Shown here one piece after another: positions 1,951-40,708 of a stretch of 64,000 bases of DNA. The DNA is from an uncultured Acidobacteriota bacterium (lineage in GTDB: Bacteria; Acidobacteriota; Vicinamibacteria; Vicinamibacterales; 2-12-FULL-66-21). Location: assembly GCA_963695655.1 (NCBI GenBank), contig CAVOHG010000008.1, positions 909,380 to 973,379 on the forward strand, given 5' to 3'. The position numbers and the translations under genes are program-made. The notes under the pieces were generated by a model. That model was not told the DNA's origin. It was given only the letters and a program-made list of their open reading frames with translations, and did no database searches. How positions within the stretch are numbered: position 1 is the first letter of the stretch; each line of letters starts with the position of its first letter.

Positions 1951-2021
1951 TTTCCAGTTACCGGTCGCCAGTCGCCAGTGAGTCAGGATTGCCTTTCCTG
2001 GCAACTGGAAACTGGTAACTG
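1951..2021. repeat. heptanucleotide repeat element, CCAGTNN family, two inverted arms
   Basis: Left arm is ccagtta ccggtcg ccagtcg ccagtga. Right arm is ctggcaa ctggaaa ctggtaa in opposite orientation. Lies between the recO stop and the glyQ start. Confidence 0.8.
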
Positions 2022-2032
2022 CCCGCTGGCCG

Positions 2033-12218: not shown

Positions 12219-12227
12219 GCTCTCGTT

Positions 12228-12274
12228 CAGGGTTCGGCGGGTTCGGGGTTCAGGGTTCAGGTTCCGGGTTCGCC
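12228..12274. repeat. heptanucleotide repeat array, GGGTTCR family
   Basis: gggttcg gcgggttcg gggttca gggttca ggttccgggttcg. It overlaps the last codons of hisS. Confidence 0.75.
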
Positions 12275-13595: not shown

Positions 13596-14140
13596 CAGCG
13601 CCCGGGAGCGGCGTCGGTTCCGCCCATGTAATCGAGGCGATAGCCAACGTACCGCTCGGCGTAGTCGCGAATCGACGCGACGTCGTCGTCGGTCAGCTCG
13701 CGGCGCACTTTTCCCGGACTGCCCATGACCAGCGAACGGGGTGGAATCTGCGCGTTCTCGGTCAGGAGTGTGCCGGCAGCGACGATGCAGTCGTGGCCGA
13801 CGTCGACGCCGTTCAACAGGATGGCGCCCATCCCGACCAGGATCCGGTCCCCCAGGGTGCAGCCGTGCACGATCACCCCGTGCCCAATCGTGACATCGTC
13901 GCCAATGGTCGTGGCGTGCGTCCCGCGCATGACGTGCACGATCGTGCCATCCTGAACGTTGCTCCGGCGCCCGATGCGGATGCGGTGCACGTCGCCGCGG
14001 ATCACGACATTCATCCAGACGCTGCTCGCCTCGCCAATCTCGACATCGCCGATGACCTGGGCGCTCTCGTCCACGTACGCCGTCTGATGCACCACCGGAA
14101 GGCGCCCCTTATAGCTCCGAAGCATCTCTAGATGATACAC
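13595..14140 (-). CDS. gamma carbonic anhydrase family / left-handed beta-helix (hexapeptide) protein
   Basis: Intact 181-aa ORF with hexapeptide repeats and YrdA/PaaY-like sequence (SVWMNVVIRGDVHRIRIGRRSNVQDGTIVHV...IGHGVIVHGCTL). Confidence 0.85.
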   Translation of the reverse strand: MYHLEMLRSYKGRLPVVHQTAYVDESAQVIGDVEIGEASSVWMNVVIRGDVHRIRIGRRSNVQDGTIVHVMRGTHATTIGDDVTIGHGVIVHGCTLGDRILVGMGAILLNGVDVGHDCIVAAGTLLTENAQIPPRSLVMGSPGKVRRELTDDDVASIRDYAERYVGYRLDYMGGTDAAPGR

Positions 14141-14158
14141 GGGGGGACGAGGGTTTCA

Positions 14159-14227
14159 CTTACCAGTTACCAGTTCCCAGTGCACCACTGGGACTGGAAA
14201 CTACTGGAAACTGGAGACTGGAGACTC
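14159..14227. repeat. heptanucleotide repeat element, CCAGTNN family, inverted arms
   Basis: ccagtta ccagttc ccagtgc followed by the inverted gactgga aactactgga aactgga gactgga gactc. Lies in the divergent region between the gamma-CA-like gene and moaA. Confidence 0.8.
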
Positions 14228-14290
14228 GCCATTGCTGGAACTTTTCCGCGTTGGAACGTACTGAGTTGGAACTGTCATAATCAGAGAGTG

Positions 14291-15313
14291 ATGCCCCTCG
14301 TCGATCGCTTCGCGCGGCCGCTGCGCAGCCTTCGGATCTCCGTCACCGATCGCTGCAACCTGCGTTGCCAGTACTGCATGCCCGAGCCGGAGTACGTGTG
14401 GCTGCCGCGCGAGAGCCTGTTGACCTTCGAGGAAACGGCCGACATCGTCGACGCGTTCACGCCGCTCGGCGTCGATCGGGTACGGATCACCGGCGGCGAG
14501 CCGCTGCTCCGGCGCGATCTTCCGGTCCTGGTCGAATCACTGGCGGCGCGCGGCGCGATTACCGATCTCGCGCTCACGACCAACGGCGTCCTGCTCGCCG
14601 GCCAGGCGCAGGCGCTGCGGGCGGCGGGCCTTCACCGCATCACCGTCAGCCTCGACACGCTGCAGCGCAATCGCTTCCAGTCGCTGACACGAATGGACGA
14701 CCTCGATGCCGTGCTCGCCGGAATCGATGCGGCCGCCAGCGCGGGATTCGCGGGACTCAAGCTCGACACCGTCGTGATCCGCGGAGTGAACGATGACGAG
14801 CTCGTCGCCCTGCTCGAGTACGGCCGCCGCATGGGAGCGGAGGTCCGCTTCATCGAGTACATGGATGTGGGCGGCGCGACCCGCTGGACGCGCGAGGCGG
14901 TTGTGCCCCGTCGCGAGATCCTCGCGCGCGTCGAAGCCCATTACGGTGCGGTGATGCCGATCGACGAGCAATCGTCCGCGCCAGCCGCCCGCTTTCTGCT
15001 GCCCGATGGAACGAGTTTCGGGATCATCTCGTCGACGACCGAACCGTTCTGCGCTTCGTGCGACCGCAGCCGCCTTACCGCGGACGGCGTCTGGCTGTTG
15101 TGTCTGTATGCGGCGACCGGCACCGATCTGCGGCGCCCGCTCCGCGCCGGCGCGACAGCGGCCGATCTGCAGCGGCTCGTGGCCGCGGTGTGGTCCGTGC
15201 GTGCCGATCGGGGGGCCGAGGAACGCCTCGAGGTGGACCGTGAGACGACGCTCATCCCGGTCCGCACGCTCAAGCGCGATGCGCACCTCGAGATGCACAC
15301 TCGCGGCGGATAG
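14291..15313 (+). CDS. moaA: GTP 3',8-cyclase MoaA (radical SAM)
   Basis: MPLVDRFARPLRSLRISVTDRCNLRCQYCMP (CX3CX2C) and C-terminal cluster CASCDRSRLTADG. ATG at 14291 is preferred over the upstream in-frame ATG at 14132. Confidence 0.93.
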   Translation: MPLVDRFARPLRSLRISVTDRCNLRCQYCMPEPEYVWLPRESLLTFEETADIVDAFTPLGVDRVRITGGEPLLRRDLPVLVESLAARGAITDLALTTNGVLLAGQAQALRAAGLHRITVSLDTLQRNRFQSLTRMDDLDAVLAGIDAAASAGFAGLKLDTVVIRGVNDDELVALLEYGRRMGAEVRFIEYMDVGGATRWTREAVVPRREILARVEAHYGAVMPIDEQSSAPAARFLLPDGTSFGIISSTTEPFCASCDRSRLTADGVWLLCLYAATGTDLRRPLRAGATAADLQRLVAAVWSVRADRGAEERLEVDRETTLIPVRTLKRDAHLEMHTRGG

Positions 15314-15317
15314 AGCT

Positions 15318-15760
15318 TCGCGGGATTCGGGATTGGGGATTGGGGATTTGGGATTGAGGATTGAGCGAGTTCGACTATCCGGTTTCCAGTACCCAGTACC
15401 TCGGTTTCTTCCGCCTGAAGGCGGAAGCTACAACGACGATGCGCCACCCGAATCCCGAGTCGAACCCGAGTCCCGAGCCCGAATCTCGAGTCCGAACCCC
15501 GAGTCCCGAATCCCGAGTCCAGAACCCCCGAGTCCCGAGTCCCGAGCCCCGAGTCCGAACCCCGAGTCCGAACCCCGAGTCCCGCCGAGGCCCGAGTCCC
15601 GAGGCCCGAATCCCGAATCGCGAGCCCCGACCCCCGTGTCCCGTGTCCGTGCCCCGAACCCGAACCCGAACCCGAACCCGAACCAGAACCCGAACCCCGA
15701 GTCCCGAACCCCGAACCCCGCGTCCCTGATCCCCGATCCCCGATCCCTAATCCCGAGTGC
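15318..15760. repeat. large compound heptanucleotide repeat region (GGGATTG arm, then about 320 bp of the inverse CCGARTC/CCGAACC type)
   Basis: gggattc gggattg gggattg gggattt gggattg aggattg at 15318-15365. ccgaatc ccgagtc gaacccgagtc ccgagcc ... cccgaac ccgaac ccgaac ... gatcccc gatcccc gatccct aatcccg at about 15440-15760. Also contains the palindrome at 15408-15427. Confidence 0.85.
15408..15427. repeat. 20-nt perfect palindromic hairpin element, copy 1 (cttccgcc tgaa ggcggaag)
   Basis: 8-bp GC-rich stem with a 4-nt loop. The same sequence recurs at 17631, 28154 and 40687. Confidence 0.85.
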
Positions 15761-17540: not shown

Positions 17541-17607
17541 TCAGTTCACAGCTATCAGCTATCAGCTGTCAGCAGTTAGTAATCAGCTTCAGCTTCAGCT
17601 GTCAGCG
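17541..17607. repeat. heptanucleotide repeat array, CAGCTRT family
   Basis: cagctat cagctat cagctgt cagcagt tagtaat cagcttc agcttc agctgt cagcg. Lies in the divergent region between the HtrA gene and the propeller gene. Confidence 0.8.
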
Positions 17608-17630: not shown

Positions 17631-17650
17631 CTTCCGCCTGAAGGCGGAAG
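17631..17650. repeat. 20-nt palindromic hairpin element, copy 2, followed by two tandem 19-nt units
   Basis: cttccgcctgaaggcggaag, then aagctacgggtaaagacgc twice (17648-17685). Confidence 0.85.
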
Positions 17651-17802
17651 CTACGGGTAAAGACGCAAGCTACGGGTAAAGACGCCAAGCGACACCTAGC
17701 GGTCTACAACCGAGCGAACCCCGAACCCCCCGCCTACGCCGCGAAGCGGCGACGGCGCGGCCCGTGTTGACACCGCGTGGCAGATGCAGTGCAATCCGCG
17801 CC

Positions 17803-24982: not shown

Positions 24983-26371
24983 ATGCCTGTACTGGCCCTG
25001 GCCGCGGCGCTCGGACTTGCCGCCGGACTTCTCGCTGACTCTCCTGAAGCGGCATCAAGAACGATTGCATGGGCCGATCTTGCACCGCTGCAGACCACGC
25101 TCGAGGCGCACGGCGTAACCGCCGCCTCCTTCGGCGCGTTCGTCGAGAAGACGCACGCTGACAGCCTGCGCCGCGTGCGCGAGGGCGACCTCGACCATCT
25201 GGTCTTCTACGCGCTGCAGTCGACACACTTCACCAGCCTGGCCCCCATCGAGCCGGCGCTCAGTGCCAAGGCCCTGGTCGACAACCTCGATGCCGTCGGT
25301 CGAGACGCATTCCTCAAGGGACGTCCTGACATCGAGCCGCCCATTCCACAACCCGTCCGCCAGCGGGTAGCGGCACTGTTGCGCGCGCTCGATTCACCCG
25401 GGAGCGATTCGCGGCTCACCTACTTCCAATCGCTCGTGCAAACGACATTTACCGATCGTCAGAAACGTCAGGCTGGCGTCCTTCGCGAGTACCTGCGGGC
25501 GATGCGCTTCATCTACCAGAAGGAGTTCGTTGCGCAGCGTGCCGGCGCGGACGCGGTCGCCGCGCTCTATCGCACCCGTGGCCTGAGCACGGACACCGCC
25601 GTCGAAGCCGGCTACGTCGTCTACAACGGCCTCGGTATCGTTCGCGCGCTCGATCCGGAACGGCGGATTCGCCGGGTGCTGATCGTCGGCCCCGGGTTGG
25701 ACCTTGCGCCGAGAACAGGACTGCTCGAAGCCGGTCCGCCAGAGAGCTATCAACCCTGGGCGGTCATCGACGCTTTGCTCGCGCTCGGGCTTTCACGCGC
25801 AGATGACTTACAGGTGGTGGGTGCCGACATCAATATCCGGGTCGTGCAGCATCTCGCGCGTTCGCACGCGGCGCCTCCGGTGCTGACGCTGGTCAGCGAA
25901 ATCGCCGAGAGCGATACGGTCAAGCTCTCTGCCGAGTATCGCGATTATTTTGCCCAGCTGGGCGGCGCGATCGGCACCATCACCCAAGCCCGGACCGAGA
26001 GCACGAAAACCTCCGGGCGTCTAATCAAGACTGTGCAGGTCGGTGCCAGGTCGGCCTCGGCCCTCAGCGCGGCCACCGTCGACATCGTCACCGAGCACCT
26101 CGAGGCACCGGCATTCGACCTGATCATTGCGACCAACATCCTGCCGTATTTCGACGACCTGCAGTTGATGCTGGCGATCGGCAACGTCAGCCGGATGCTT
26201 ACGCCCGGGGGTGTGTTCCTTCACAACGAAGCCCGTCCGATACTCGGGGAAATCACCGGGGCACTTGGACTGGAGTTCGAGCAGTCGCGTCAGGTCGTCA
26301 TCGCGACCGTCCGCGGAGCGGCGCCGCTCGCGGACAGGGTGTGGATTCATCAGAGGGCGACGGGGAAATAG
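24983..26371 (+). CDS. hypothetical secreted protein with C-terminal Rossmann/SAM-methyltransferase-like region
   Basis: Intact 462-aa ORF. RRVLIVGPGLDLAP ... FDLIIATNILPYFDDLQLMLAIGNVSRMLTPGGVFLHNE resembles class I methyltransferase motifs I and post-II. The N-terminal 230 aa are unassigned. Confidence 0.45.
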   Translation: MPVLALAAALGLAAGLLADSPEAASRTIAWADLAPLQTTLEAHGVTAASFGAFVEKTHADSLRRVREGDLDHLVFYALQSTHFTSLAPIEPALSAKALVDNLDAVGRDAFLKGRPDIEPPIPQPVRQRVAALLRALDSPGSDSRLTYFQSLVQTTFTDRQKRQAGVLREYLRAMRFIYQKEFVAQRAGADAVAALYRTRGLSTDTAVEAGYVVYNGLGIVRALDPERRIRRVLIVGPGLDLAPRTGLLEAGPPESYQPWAVIDALLALGLSRADDLQVVGADINIRVVQHLARSHAAPPVLTLVSEIAESDTVKLSAEYRDYFAQLGGAIGTITQARTESTKTSGRLIKTVQVGARSASALSAATVDIVTEHLEAPAFDLIIATNILPYFDDLQLMLAIGNVSRMLTPGGVFLHNEARPILGEITGALGLEFEQSRQVVIATVRGAAPLADRVWIHQRATGK

Positions 26372-26430
26372 TTACCAGTTACCAGTTACCAGTCACCAGT
26401 TACCAGGCGCCAGTTGCCAGTCGCCAGACT
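26371..26430. repeat. heptanucleotide tandem array, CCAGTNN family, about 8 direct units
   Basis: gttaccagtta ccagtta ccagtca ccagtta ccaggcg ccagttg ccagtcg ccagact. Confidence 0.85.
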
Positions 26431-26500: not shown

Positions 26501-26532
26501 TATAACCCTATAACCAAATAACCCTATAACCT
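26501..26532. repeat. four tandem octamers TATAACCN immediately upstream of the oxidoreductase gene
   Basis: tataaccc tataacca aataaccc tataacct, ending 20 nt before the ATG at 26552. Confidence 0.7.
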
Positions 26533-28153: not shown

Positions 28154-28173
28154 CTTCCGCCTTCAGGCGGAAG
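28154..28173. repeat. 20-nt palindromic hairpin element, copy 3 (loop inverted: cttccgcc ttca ggcggaag)
   Basis: Same stem as the other copies. Lies between convergent genes. Confidence 0.85.
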
Positions 28174-28200
28174 ATCCACGTGCCGAAACGTGCCACGGAC

Positions 28201-28237
28201 GGCGACTGGTGACTGGCCACTGGTAACTGGTAACTAC
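28201..28237. repeat. heptanucleotide array, CCAGTNN family in reverse orientation
   Basis: gactggt gactggc cactggt aactggt aactac. Confidence 0.8.
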
Positions 28238-38245: not shown

Positions 38246-38262
38246 CAGGTCTCCACGAAGCT

Positions 38263-38339
38263 AACAGCTGTCAGCTATCAGTACAGTTCCAAGACTAACC
38301 TGAGCTGATAGCTGAATGCTGATAGCTGATAGCCGAGAG
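38263..38339. repeat. heptanucleotide repeat element, CAGCTRT family, inverted arms
   Basis: acagctgt cagctat cagtaca ... then the inverted gagctga tagctga atgctga tagctga tagccga. Confidence 0.8.
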
Positions 38340-40565
38340 CTATTTCCCCTTCTCGATCACTTCGACGATTCCGGCGTCGATGAACTGGCCGCCTCGCACC
38401 TGTTTTGTATGGATGGCGAGCACGTTGGATGCGCCGTGATGCAGCTGCGCGGCGGCGGCGGCGTCCAGGGGAATGTAGGCGTACCCGCCAACCGCGCCGG
38501 GCAGAGTGCTTACGAGCGTCCCATTCACAAACACCTCGGCGTCGTCGTCGTGATAAATGCGCAGGTGCGGATTGATCAACGCCCGGGACGGCATGTCGAA
38601 GGTCCGACGGATCCAGATATCCGGCGTCAGCCACGGCGTCCCGACGCGTGCACGCGGGGTATCAGGCTTGCCGAATCCCCCGTTGCCCCTCTGCCATCCT
38701 CCGTCATCGAACGCGGCTGTCGACCAGGTCGGCGGCGGAGCAGTGGTCGTGTATCGCCACTGCTGGGCGGAGCGATCCGATGAGAGAACGACGTCGCGGA
38801 CGACCGGCGGCGAGGCGAGCGCGGCATGAAGGGCGAGCGCGTCCTGGGGAAGCTTCACGACGGCACGGTCGTAGGTCATCATTCCATTGACCTCGATCTC
38901 GACATCGGTTGTCTGCGTGTATATCGCGGCAGCGAGGCCTTCCCCGACCATGATGCGCAGCTGATACATGAGATCCCGGTACGCCTGCCCGAGTTCGTCG
39001 GTGTTCTTGTAGGTCCGGTATCCCCAGTTCCCCTTGTCGATCCACGTGTGGCCCTCGAGCGGCAGCCCCAGGCCGCCGAATTCTCCGAGAACGGCGGCGC
39101 GCTTCTCTTCGAGCAGCGGCATCGCCGGGCCAGGGTACGAGTGCACGTCAGAGACGTCGCCGACGCCTGTGTCGGTCCACCCGCTCGTGTTGTTGACCAG
39201 GCGGCTCGGGTCGCGCTGTTTCAGCCACGCGACGTACTTCTCGGTTTCATGCTGCCCCCAGCCTTCGTTGAAGGGCACCCACATGACGATCGACGTGTAA
39301 CTCTTCAACGCGTCCACGACGTGCTCGAGCTCCGGTGCGAACGCGGCGCGGTTCTCCGCCGGCTTGTCCGGGCCGCTCGGCATGTCCTGCCACACCAGCA
39401 TGCCGAGGCGGTCACAGTGGTAGTACCAGCGCGCCGGTTCGACCTTCACATGTTTGCGTATGAGGTTGAACCCGAGCGCTTTCGATCGTTCGATATCCGA
39501 TCGCAGTGCTTCGTCCGTCGGCGCAGTATAGAGGCCGTCGGGCCACCATCCCTGGTCGAGCAGTCCGTATTGAAAGAGCGGCTTGCCGTTCAGGAACAGG
39601 CGATTGACGCCGGCTGCATCGCGCGCGACTGCAACCGTGCGAATCCCGACATAGCTGCGGACCTCGTCACGTCCGAGCCGCACCCGCAGCGCGTACAAGA
39701 AAGGACTCTCGGGCGACCAGAGTTTCGCGGCCGGGATGCGCAGGACGAGCGGCTCTCCCGCCGTGCCACTGATCTCGGCCACGACGCGGGAACCCTCGAG
39801 CGCTGACACCCGGGCGACACCTGCCCCGGCAGTCGACGGGACGACACGGACTGACACCGTACCCTTCGCCGCATCCGGAACGAGTTCCAGGCTGCTGATG
39901 TATGCCGCAGGGACGGGTTCGAGCCAGACCGTCTGCCAGATGCCGGTGACCGCCGTGTACCAGATGCTCTTCGGTTCGAGCACCTGCTTGCCTCGAGGCT
40001 GCGTGCCGCGATCGGTCGGGTCAGTCACTCCGACGACGAGCACCTGGTCGCCGGACGGCTTCAGGAACTCGGTAATGTCGAACGAGAACGGATCGTAGCC
40101 GCCGGTGTGGGTGCCGACACGCCGGCCGTTCACCATCACCTGCGTTTCCCAATCCACGGCGCCAAAGTGCAGCAGCAGTCGTGACCCCCGCGCCAGGGCT
40201 GGTGCGCGGAACGTTCGTCTGTACCAGAGTCGCTGCGTGTCGCTGACCGCCGCTCCCACGCCGCTCAACTGCGACTGGATCGCAAAAGGCACGAGGATGC
40301 GCCCTGCAAACGCCTGTGGCTCGGGTGCGGCGGCATCGAGCACGGCGTAGTCCCACTCGCCGTTCAGGTTCTGCCACGCGGAGCGCACCATCTGCGGTCG
40401 TGGATACTCCGGCAGCGCCCGGGCGGGCGTTACATCGGCGGCCCACCGGGTTCGAAGCTTCGTCGCGCCCGGCTGCGCAGATGCCGAGGTGAACGCGCCG
40501 CTCGCCAGGAGGACGAGAACCGCCGCGGCCAGGCGCCGGACCGGAGGAATCGATGAATGGATCAT
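38340..40565 (-). CDS. glycoside hydrolase family 2 protein (beta-galactosidase/beta-glucuronidase-like) with extra C-terminal domain
   Basis: Signal peptide MIHSSIPPVRRLAAAVLVLLASGAFTSASA. GH2 sugar-binding and TIM-barrel regions (LHFGAVDWETQVMVNGRRVGTHTGGYDPFSFDIT; NLIRKHVKVE; VMWVPFNEGWG). Confidence 0.85.
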   Translation of the reverse strand: MIHSSIPPVRRLAAAVLVLLASGAFTSASAQPGATKLRTRWAADVTPARALPEYPRPQMVRSAWQNLNGEWDYAVLDAAAPEPQAFAGRILVPFAIQSQLSGVGAAVSDTQRLWYRRTFRAPALARGSRLLLHFGAVDWETQVMVNGRRVGTHTGGYDPFSFDITEFLKPSGDQVLVVGVTDPTDRGTQPRGKQVLEPKSIWYTAVTGIWQTVWLEPVPAAYISSLELVPDAAKGTVSVRVVPSTAGAGVARVSALEGSRVVAEISGTAGEPLVLRIPAAKLWSPESPFLYALRVRLGRDEVRSYVGIRTVAVARDAAGVNRLFLNGKPLFQYGLLDQGWWPDGLYTAPTDEALRSDIERSKALGFNLIRKHVKVEPARWYYHCDRLGMLVWQDMPSGPDKPAENRAAFAPELEHVVDALKSYTSIVMWVPFNEGWGQHETEKYVAWLKQRDPSRLVNNTSGWTDTGVGDVSDVHSYPGPAMPLLEEKRAAVLGEFGGLGLPLEGHTWIDKGNWGYRTYKNTDELGQAYRDLMYQLRIMVGEGLAAAIYTQTTDVEIEVNGMMTYDRAVVKLPQDALALHAALASPPVVRDVVLSSDRSAQQWRYTTTAPPPTWSTAAFDDGGWQRGNGGFGKPDTPRARVGTPWLTPDIWIRRTFDMPSRALINPHLRIYHDDDAEVFVNGTLVSTLPGAVGGYAYIPLDAAAAAQLHHGASNVLAIHTKQVRGGQFIDAGIVEVIEKGK

Positions 40566-40641: not shown

Positions 40642-40708
40642 GCTTCCGCCTCAAACCTCTGTAGCTTCCGCCTCAAACCTGTGTAGCTTCCGCCTTCAGG
40701 CGGAAGCC

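Follow-up and report, generated by a model that had tools for sequence, protein, structure and literature searches.

Cyanobacteria carry short tandemly repeated repetitive (STRR) heptanucleotides with the unit CCCCAGT, along with two other STRR units. Repetitive extragenic palindromic (REP) sequences, bacterial interspersed mosaic elements (BIMEs) and REPINs are abundant palindromes of intergenic DNA; many of them follow stop codons within operons, they can fold into hairpins in mRNA, and REP doublets have a fixed polarity. To our knowledge, the role of heptameric repeats is still obscure after more than 30 years. We describe here tandem arrays of the heptamer CCAGTNN in a 64,000-nucleotide stretch of an uncultured bacterium (positions 909,380 to 973,379 of contig CAVOHG010000008.1, assembly GCA_963695655.1), referred to here as the window, and in the genome to which it belongs (G000). 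The arrays are a lineage-specific heptamer simple-sequence family, of the same kind as the STRRs, the long simple sequence repeats (SSRs) of Mrazek et al. and the GGGAATC repeats of Xanthomonas. What is new here is the host lineage and the repeat word for a known class of heptamer repeat.

Rehm et al. (2015; PMC4692102) reported heptamer repeats in Xanthomonas (GGGAATC) and Nostoc (GGGGA(C/T)T). According to that paper, these repeats are biased to non-coding DNA, under-represented between divergent open reading frames (ORFs) and found within 50 bp of stops or starts; most are transcribed, Xanthomonas has 70-75 array pairs "in convergent orientation", related species differ widely in repeat length and sequence at a given locus, and no function was identified. 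MacGregor (2015; PMC4679880) described TAACTGA direct repeats in marine Beggiatoaceae, Cyanobacteria and Bacteroidetes. In that account their distribution is sporadic, they lie just upstream of start codons, ribosomal-protein operons included, and an RNA-binding reader was proposed. In the summary of Mrazek et al. (2007) given by PMC4679880, long SSRs have units of 5-11 nt with heptanucleotides as the most abundant class, are scattered over phyla and are attributed to polymerase slippage; heptanucleotide units, a scattered distribution and slippage as the proposed cause are what CCAGTNN arrays share with them.

The nearest GlyQ relatives of G000 are metagenome-assembled genomes (MAGs) labelled Acidobacteriota, Vicinamibacterales or Vicinamibacteraceae, and by this measure the host is of the Acidobacteriota/Vicinamibacterales type. 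Acidobacteriota is a soil phylum with few cultures. An earlier note on the window, made from its letters alone, had called the repeats an STRR-like heptanucleotide family and was aware of no equivalent for this kind of genome. Our data agree with the class, as we found head-to-tail 7-nt tandems beyond chance in many dispersed and mainly non-coding copies. The statement about precedents holds for the lineage: open full text, which covers few subscription journals, yielded no description of such repeats for Acidobacteria/Acidobacteriota or Vicinamibacteria. What it missed is that precedents exist outside cyanobacteria. A cyanobacterial STRR in the strict sense was considered and rejected, given that the host belongs to Acidobacteriota and that the rotation of CCCCAGT (CCAGTCC) makes up only 41 of 1092 units.

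Abundance and unit structure of the arrays

We found that the CCAGTNN family is not restricted to the window. The genome-wide census of period-7 repeats that the earlier note had proposed as a check was run, and chaining at least three phase-consistent cores gave 265 CCAGT arrays of 3-18 cores each on all 9 contigs of the 6.218-Mb assembly (65-67% G+C, 95% complete). Called genes were taken from a home-made gene map built from codon and dicodon statistics, which covers 75% of the genome and in which start codons are unreliable; 249 of the 265 arrays lie outside these genes. Perfect runs of at least three CCAGTNN units occur 111 times in forward and 126 times in reverse orientation, and a control word with the reversed pattern has no match in G000. 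Among 60 permutations of its letters CCAGT is the top word, with 38 giving at most five arrays and 23 giving none. Within the window, CCAGTNNCCAGTNNCCAGT with at most one mismatch has 16 matches compared to 0.01 expected, a count that none of 100 dinucleotide shuffles reached.

Tandem Repeats Finder (TRF) was run on the window and the whole genome, and merged period-7-type arrays were counted. The genome gave 6249 rows, of which period 7 comprised 1317 (52.7 kb) compared to 444 for period 6 and 402 for period 8. After merging, 1355 period-7-type arrays cover 60.1 kb, approximately 1% of the genome, and 1050 of them (336 of 369 for arrays of at least 50 nt) fall in the 25% of the genome left non-coding by the gene map. 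The output contains 223 canonical heptamer units, the commonest being AATCCCG, AGCTATC, ACTCGGG, ACTGGCG, AACCCGG and AAACTGG. CCAGTNN is one among several heptamer families in G000.

We asked how the seven positions of the unit vary in TRF arrays without indels, with at least four copies and a consensus containing CCAGT (119 arrays, 560 units). Differences were counted against each array's own majority unit, so that the core was not presupposed. Variation within arrays affects 2.1-2.7% of units at positions 1-5, 25% at position 6 and 33% at position 7. Arrays with a facing arm (91) and arrays that have no opposite motif within 120 nt (54) show the same 5+2 pattern, and pairing between arms therefore cannot be the sole reason for the core. 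All 16 dinucleotides are well used at NN except AC, which is rare (5 units); CG, AA, TC, TT, AG and CA lead in frequency. Of 776 pairs of neighboring units, 234 are identical compared to 10.6% expected, the mark of local duplication. Other families likewise have their own variable positions, as in the CAGCT family, where xCAG is kept and the three bases after it vary.

The arrays resemble the STRRs and the Nostoc GGGGA(C/T)T repeats as tandem heptamers dispersed over many intergenic sites with a non-coding bias, and CCAGTCC, the rotation of CCCCAGT, has the complement GGGGACT. They differ in that the host here is an acidobacterium rather than a heterocystous cyanobacterium and that CCAGTNN has no G-tracts. 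Its units carry at most GG on the complementary strand, short of the three or more consecutive G per unit of a G-quadruplex motif, and therefore no G-quadruplex is expected, whereas other families of G000 (CGGGATT, GGGGATT) do have G-tracts.

Inverted pairs, placement and turnover of the word

Nearly half of the arrays (122/265) form 61 inverted pairs at most 80 nt apart, while 143 are unpaired. The order is 5'-(CCAGTNN)n...(NNACTGG)n-3' in all 61 pairs and the reverse order does not occur. Since a paired element reads alike on both strands, polarity here refers to the element's own centre. A family-blind search with TRF units and their complements gave 66 pairs in which polarity was uniform within each of 30 unit types (for instance CAGCTAT 6:0, CAGCTGT 5:0, AGGTTTT 4:0 and ACGTGCN 8:0). 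We found no rule of composition for the first arm across families: pyrimidine-rich, T-rich and G+T-rich each fail.

That facing arms can form long imperfect hairpins, as had been proposed for two sites of the window, agrees with RNA folding of the 61 pairs: the median minimum free energy is -41.8 kcal/mol compared to -22.7 kcal/mol for shuffled sequences (median z of -6), and 60 of 61 have z < -2. The predicted structures consist of 5-bp helices separated by 2x2 internal loops. The half unit outside the last full unit is conserved (ACT at 98, 95 and 92 of 122 flanks), while the GG that would complete it is not. A run of at least four T within 15 nt outside the arm occurs at only 3 of 122 flanks, so that the pairs have the hairpin of an intrinsic terminator and lack its U-tract. 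Between the arms lie 0-72 nt without conserved sequence, and each copy has its own arm lengths and NN. Set against the features of a miniature inverted-repeat transposable element (MITE), the arms are inverted and the AGT...ACT termini recur, while internal segments and arm lengths are not conserved.

Like REPs, BIMEs and REPINs, the CCAGT pairs are intergenic, palindromic, abundant, often located after stop codons, able to form hairpins and fixed in polarity; unlike them, their arms are heptamer arrays of variable length rather than one conserved sequence of 20-40 nt. Pairs are common in G000, whereas Nostoc is described as having "only a few paired repeats" in PMC4692102. In PMC4679880, heptamers related to TAACTGA are rarely repeated and there are almost no inverted repeats (one "indirect repeat"). 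In G000, by comparison, inverted pairs take in half of the arrays, and the unit leaves its last two bases free.

Tandem spacers contain 89 of the 122 paired arms, convergent spacers 24 and divergent spacers 2, while 7 arms fall within called coding sequence. The pairs begin a few bases past a stop codon; for arms in tandem spacers, the quartiles of the distance to the upstream stop are 10/47/73 nt, and 60 arms are nearer the stop compared to 29 nearer the start. Period-7 arrays of at least 21 nt are present in 607 of 3731 spacers of 30 nt or more, with the share highest in convergent spacers (28%), followed by tandem (15%) and divergent ones (11%). Among 134 unpaired arrays, 90 are oriented with the CCAGT strand pointing away from the closer gene, regardless of the direction of this gene (Fisher p = 1e-4), and each of the three spacer classes shows a trend of the same sign. 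These properties are similar to those reported for GGGAATC in PMC4692102, namely non-coding bias, avoidance of divergent ORFs, proximity to stop codons, convergent pairs and variation at the same locus. The differences are another word and another phylum, no potential for G-quadruplexes in CCAGTNN, and in G000 two free positions, several word families and a switch of word at the genus level.

Arrays are most concentrated at C9:209.5-228.2 kb; one 25-kb bin there has 24 of them, compared to 8 in the next densest bin of the genome. Pfam matches there comprise S7, EF-G, S10, L3, L4, L23, L2, S3, L16, L14, L5, S8, L6, L18, S5, SecY, methionine aminopeptidase, S13, S11 and S4, by which the region is the str/S10/spc/alpha cluster. 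It contains 10 CCAGT pairs between cistrons, and a period-7 array is present in 15 of the 20 spacers that measure at least 15 nt. The TAACTGA repeats of PMC4679880 are similar in that arrays of ACTG sense lie just upstream of starts, also in ribosomal-protein operons, and in their sporadic distribution over lineages, and a frequent G000 unit, TAACTGG, is one base apart from TAACTGA.

We next compared relatives, which are MAGs of uneven completeness. A four-unit CCAGT pattern is present in 18 of 24 other genomes of the genus, with 0-334 matches per genome, and in 1 of 16 genomes from other families of the order (6 matches); the reversed control word has 0-1 matches in these same-order genomes. 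Across a phylum sample of 401 genomes (G000 included), 22 have a CCAGT match, and besides G000 only G055 (150 matches, from another family), G180 (38) and G400 (24) have 20 or more. G055 (60% G+C) contains inverted pairs of the same polarity in addition to other AGT-containing units. In G180, also an acidobacterium, all 9 matches listed of the 38 are CCAGTCC, the STRR rotation. The reversed control, (TGACCNN)x3+TGACC, has 221 + 347 = 568 matches in G086, an acidobacterium of another family, and another heptamer has therefore bloomed in another family of the phylum.

Within the genus, a four-unit CAGCT pattern occurs in 23 of 24 genomes, and the share of CCAGT among CCAGT and CAGCT matches is bimodal: 8 genomes have 0.71-0.95 and 12 (including the unpublished G022) have 0-0.27, among the 20 genomes with at least 20 summed matches, which are kin and whose counts are not independent. 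The two nearest relatives with long contigs, G431 and G432, are only approximately 80% identical to G000 in coding DNA and are therefore other species. In the recO-glyQ spacer, with conserved flanks, G000 has a CCAGT pair, L001 a GCTGATA array, G431 a (CTTCCAG)n...(GGAAGCT)n pair and G432 a GGAAGCT array; in more distant relatives the recO stop is 4-12 nt before the glyQ ATG. The spacer that holds the window's repeat at 14159 carries a (TCAGCNN)3-(NNGCTGA)3 pair in G431 and approximately 40 CAGCTTC units facing 8 GGAAGCG-type units in G432. Throughout the syntenic first 45 kb of the window, array-bearing spacers of G000 also have arrays in 7 of 8 cases in G431 and 3 of 8 in G432, and the unit differs in nearly every case. 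Ribosomal-protein spacers, read directly with 7 "odd" genome-spacer combinations left out, contain ACTGGNN in G000, AGAGCTG in G431, AGCTGAN and AAGCTGG in G017, and GGAAGCT and GCTGATT in G008, while in G055 and G025 these spacers are short or have plain hairpins. AAGCTGG and AAACTGG are one base apart. Since both arms of pairs changed together, complementarity of the core is maintained while the word turns over.

What the arrays may do

The explanation that we favor, with about an even chance of being right, is that slippage-driven, transcribed and core-selected arrays act as intercistronic or 3' structures of mRNA, not as terminators. Slipped-strand mispairing would grow, shrink and homogenize the arrays, as the runs of identical neighboring units and membership in the heptamer repeat class suggest. 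The core word would be kept by selection because something reads it: the opposite arm in pairs and, because unpaired arrays keep the core equally well, probably also a trans-acting nucleic-acid binder. The arrays would be transcribed within the mRNAs of their operons and, in a REP/BIME-like manner, may affect mRNA stability, processing or translational coupling. We infer this function from structure and placement.

Several observations weigh against it. The NN of mirrored units is complementary in 7 of 197 cases compared to 18.7 +/- 4.0 by chance (the pairing register, counted from the inner ends of the arms, is an assumption), and long perfect palindromes are therefore not what is kept; the hairpins are imperfect, deliberately or accidentally. 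The repeat at 14159 has no 7-nt indel in any run checked, and with no copy-number difference at this one locus the case for slippage is array structure, just as the case for transcription is position inside operons. The 14159 site also sits in a divergent context, where pairs are otherwise almost missing; its pair is the sole one in a divergent spacer genome-wide. Genes upstream of a pair have a higher codon adaptation index (median 0.61 compared to 0.577, p = 0.005, ribosomal cluster excluded), a weak association, and all statistics of array context depend on the home-made gene map. Furthermore, we found no candidate binding factor for the core word. HutP reads NAG-N4 repeats, and its profile (PF09021) has no match in G000 (95% complete) while it matches in the control, Bacillus subtilis, which speaks against a HutP-type NAG-N4 RNA site.

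The arrays might instead be functionless, slippage-prone DNA that accumulates where it is tolerated, in spacers, with 7-nt slips favored by replication and the dominant word set by drift. We consider this unlikely but a serious possibility, as 223 canonical units, many unrelated, coexist, other words such as TGACCNN bloom in other Acidobacteriota, words turn over between species at the same spacers, and it fits both the polymerase-favored heptamer slippage proposed by Mrazek et al. (in the summary of PMC4679880) and the statement of PMC4692102 that no function was found for the Xanthomonas and Nostoc repeats. Neutral decay should, however, affect all seven positions alike, and the core varies 10 times less than NN, in unpaired arrays too. 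Nor are the strict 61:0 polarity and the conserved terminal half unit expected from drift, and the arrays are densest in the most constrained operons. Intrinsic (Rho-independent) termination by the inverted pairs would account for stable hairpins directly after stop codons and for the enrichment of convergent spacers in period-7 arrays, and we regard it as highly improbable. T-runs are scarce at the flanks, 143 arrays have no partner, and termination at the 10 pairs between ribosomal-protein cistrons would cut off downstream essential genes. Hairpins without U-tracts in operons that need read-through argue against a terminator and for elements carried in mRNA, in agreement with the earlier statement that a simple terminator role does not explain all copies.

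A role of the double-stranded or cruciform DNA is improbable in our view, whether as phased sites for a lineage-specific DNA-binding or nucleoid protein or as cruciforms that absorb supercoils at gene boundaries. Sites 7 bp apart place three units on two helical turns, the core is kept in unpaired arrays, words behave as species-specific dialects, and the orientation of unpaired arrays follows the nearer gene boundary rather than gene direction; this boundary rule is equally expected from half-decayed pairs, though, the pairs are anchored to stop codons rather than promoters, divergent (promoter) spacers are avoided, and no candidate protein was found. Very unlikely, we think, is a mobile palindromic element (MITE- or REPIN-like) whose arms were later varied by slippage, with new words transposing into the same permissive spacers. 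Fixed polarity in every unit type, defined AGT...ACT termini, repeated occupation of the same spacers and blooms of particular words, both in some species and in a distant family (G055, same polarity), would fit such an element. Against it, neither the segment between the arms nor arm length nor NN is shared between copies, no target-site duplication was seen (no systematic search was made), and no dedicated transposase was seen; the single Y1 gene, which resembles the transposases associated with REPs (RAYT), lies beside another repeat family, a REP-like hairpin, and the nearest 4 kb or so are free of heptamer arrays. We also considered a telomere-like origin, in which repeats were added to the 3' ends of a break that was then rejoined, which fits the polarity of the pairs. 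Chi-like, DNA-uptake-signal and primase-site readings of CTGG/CTG were considered too, and we advance none of them.

In a further reading, which we consider speculative and improbable, the words might be species-specific dialects of a punctuation code. A 5-nt word in 7-nt phase would mark cistron boundaries (stop-proximal CCAGU, start-proximal ACUGG) and be read by a co-evolving trans-acting RNA- or DNA-binding factor, which would determine mRNA processing, mRNA stability or the re-initiation of translation at hundreds of spacers, those of the ribosomal-protein operons among them. On this view, the move of part of the genus from AGCTG-type to ACTGG-type words would reflect an altered specificity of that factor, and the recurrence of heptamers with CAGT in cyanobacteria, Beggiatoaceae and Acidobacteriota would suggest a common reader. 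If the arrays are only tolerated products of slippage, the finding is ordinary. Points of interest specific to this family are that unpaired arrays keep the 5+2 unit, that polarity is absolute, that arrays crowd the ribosomal-protein operons and that the word switches at the genus level. A genus that keeps an array in orthologous spacers while the word changes is a natural experiment, and whether something reads the word is a testable question.

Arrays and other repeats of the window

Tandem CCAGTNN units had been noticed at four sites of the window, and both the sequence read at each site and TRF period-7 rows confirm them (Table 1). A fifth, short array at 15379-15397 had gone unlisted. For the direct array, "8 direct units" had been counted at 26371-26430; six are perfect and two are one base off. 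The reverse-orientation array placed at 28201-28237 is present, but starts approximately 6 bases before 28201. The four gene contexts (tandem, divergent, co-directional and convergent) were read correctly, as judged by ORFs and Pfam. An Rfam scan of the whole window at gathering thresholds gave no families, that is, no known RNA at the sites and no molybdenum cofactor riboswitch before moaA.

Table 1. Heptamer arrays and REP-like hairpins of the window, with gene context where given
Feature	Position	Strand	Evidence, cores	Gene context
CCAGTNN arm (CCAGTTA CCGGTCG CCAGTCG CCAGT)	1954-1979	+	Sequence, TRF, CCAGTNNCCAGTNNCCAGT search; CCAGT/CCGGT cores at 1954, 1961, 1968, 1975 (+ strand)	recO-glyQ spacer; recO to glyQ, both -, tandem
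Facing NNACTGG arm	1997-2022	-	Sequence, CCAGTNNCCAGTNNCCAGT search; on + strand CCTGG 1997, ACTGG 2004, ACTGG 2011, ACTG 2018	recO-glyQ spacer
Left arm of 14159 element (CCAGTTA CCAGTTC CCAGTGC)	14163-14183	+	Cores 14163, 14170, 14177	Hexapeptide transferase (-), MoaA (+); divergent, 165-nt spacer
Right arm of 14159 element, five ACTGG cores + terminal ACT (14224)	14187-14226	-	Cores 14187, 14193, 14203, 14210, 14217	Same spacer
Short CCAGT array (CCGGTTT CCAGTAC CCAGT)	15379-15397	+	TRF, CCAGTNNCCAGTNNCCAGT search	
Unpaired direct array, AGTTA then 6 perfect + 2 one-off CCAGTNN units	26370-26428	+	Sequence, TRF, CCAGTNNCCAGTNNCCAGT search; perfect cores 26375, 26382, 26389, 26396, 26410, 26417; CCAGG 26403, CCAGA 26424	Methyltransferase-like gene to GFO/IDH/MocA oxidoreductase, both +, co-directional
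Unpaired NNACTGG array, 4 cores + terminal ACT (28223)	28193-28225	-	Cores 28195, 28202, 28209, 28216	GFO/IDH/MocA oxidoreductase (+), Exo_endo_phos (-); convergent
GTTCAGG x6.6	12225-12271		TRF	
GGGATTG x6 (15322-15363) facing CCCGAGT/CCCGAAT/CCCGAAC, 312 nt, 46 copies (15447-15758)	15322-15758		TRF	
CAGCTAT x8.6 (CAGCT family)	17549-17606		TRF	
AGCTATC x3.3 + AGCTGAT x5.6 (CAGCT family)	38259-38341		TRF	
REP-like hairpins (4)	15408-15427, 17631-17650, 28154-28173, 40687-40706			

On the sense (-) strand of recO and glyQ, the 1997-2022 arm is the stop-proximal CCAGT arm, located after the conserved recO stop (TAG 2032-2034, - strand), and the 1954-1979 arm is the start-proximal ACTGG arm, which ends 16 nt before the glyQ ATG (1935-1937). 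recO itself is apparently frameshifted near its 3' end (2032-2160, - strand). Its conserved C-terminus (...LREMRGSDR, ending at the same TAG) is in a different frame from the ORF at 1983-2786 with the RecO_N and RecO_C domains, and the shift may be real or a long-read indel error around 2110-2156. At the 14159 site, the right arm has core spacings of 6, 10, 7 and 7, and the first two ACTGG cores are therefore out of phase; the two arms (14163-14226) fold together at -27.1 kcal/mol (z = -5.0). The first half unit (AGT) of the 26370-26428 array overlaps the TAG stop (26369-26371) of the upstream gene. The 28193-28225 array begins 20 nt after the REP-like hairpin at 28154-28173.

The earlier note had named an assembly artefact as one thing that could undo its reading. 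Contigs from two runs carry the 14159 repeat, which is therefore no artefact of this assembly. A contig of 593 bases from a public soil run (X1) spans 14004-14596 with no gaps and 20 substitutions. Listed differences fall at 14007 and next at 14310, none being listed inside 14008-14309, a stretch that runs from the 5' end of the hexapeptide-transferase gene across the repeat-bearing spacer (165 nt) to the first bases of moaA; the majority of those listed fall further into moaA. The pattern could reflect conservation of this stretch or a recombination border. The second contig (run X2 of another study, 151 bases) covers 14135-14285 without a difference, extending only 24 bases beyond the repeat on its left side. 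The one run of RNA, X20, gave no contig across 14108-14311.

The largest repeat of the window is the pair of facing arrays at 15322-15758, with a REP-like hairpin between them, and the same spacer of G431 has 22.7 copies of the complementary unit. The REP-like hairpins belong to a family (CTTCCGSC-N3-6-GSCGGAAG) with 379 copies in the genome, of which 141 are preceded by GTAG. The only Y1 (RAYT-like) gene of the genome (C7:407071-407574; Y1_Tnp match of 32.8 bits) is flanked by three tandem REP-like copies of approximately 58 nt (C7:406900-407574). A REP/REPIN identity for the CCAGT pairs was rejected, as the RAYT-like gene goes with this different repeat. Of the 379 hairpins, 155 are within 100 nt of a heptamer array compared to 32.5 +/- 5.3 for random non-coding positions, and many spacers are therefore mosaics of both families.

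Tandem repeats of other periods are found nearby. A period-8 repeat, TATAACCC x3.9 (26501-26531), lies just upstream of the GFO/IDH/MocA oxidoreductase gene, approximately 70 nt after the CCAGTNN array. A 22-nt repeat, GCTTCCGCCTCAAACCTCTGTA x2.5 (40642-40695), runs into a REP-like hairpin, and a 19-nt repeat, AAGCTACGGGTAAAGACGCC x2.2 (17648-17690), is located beside another.

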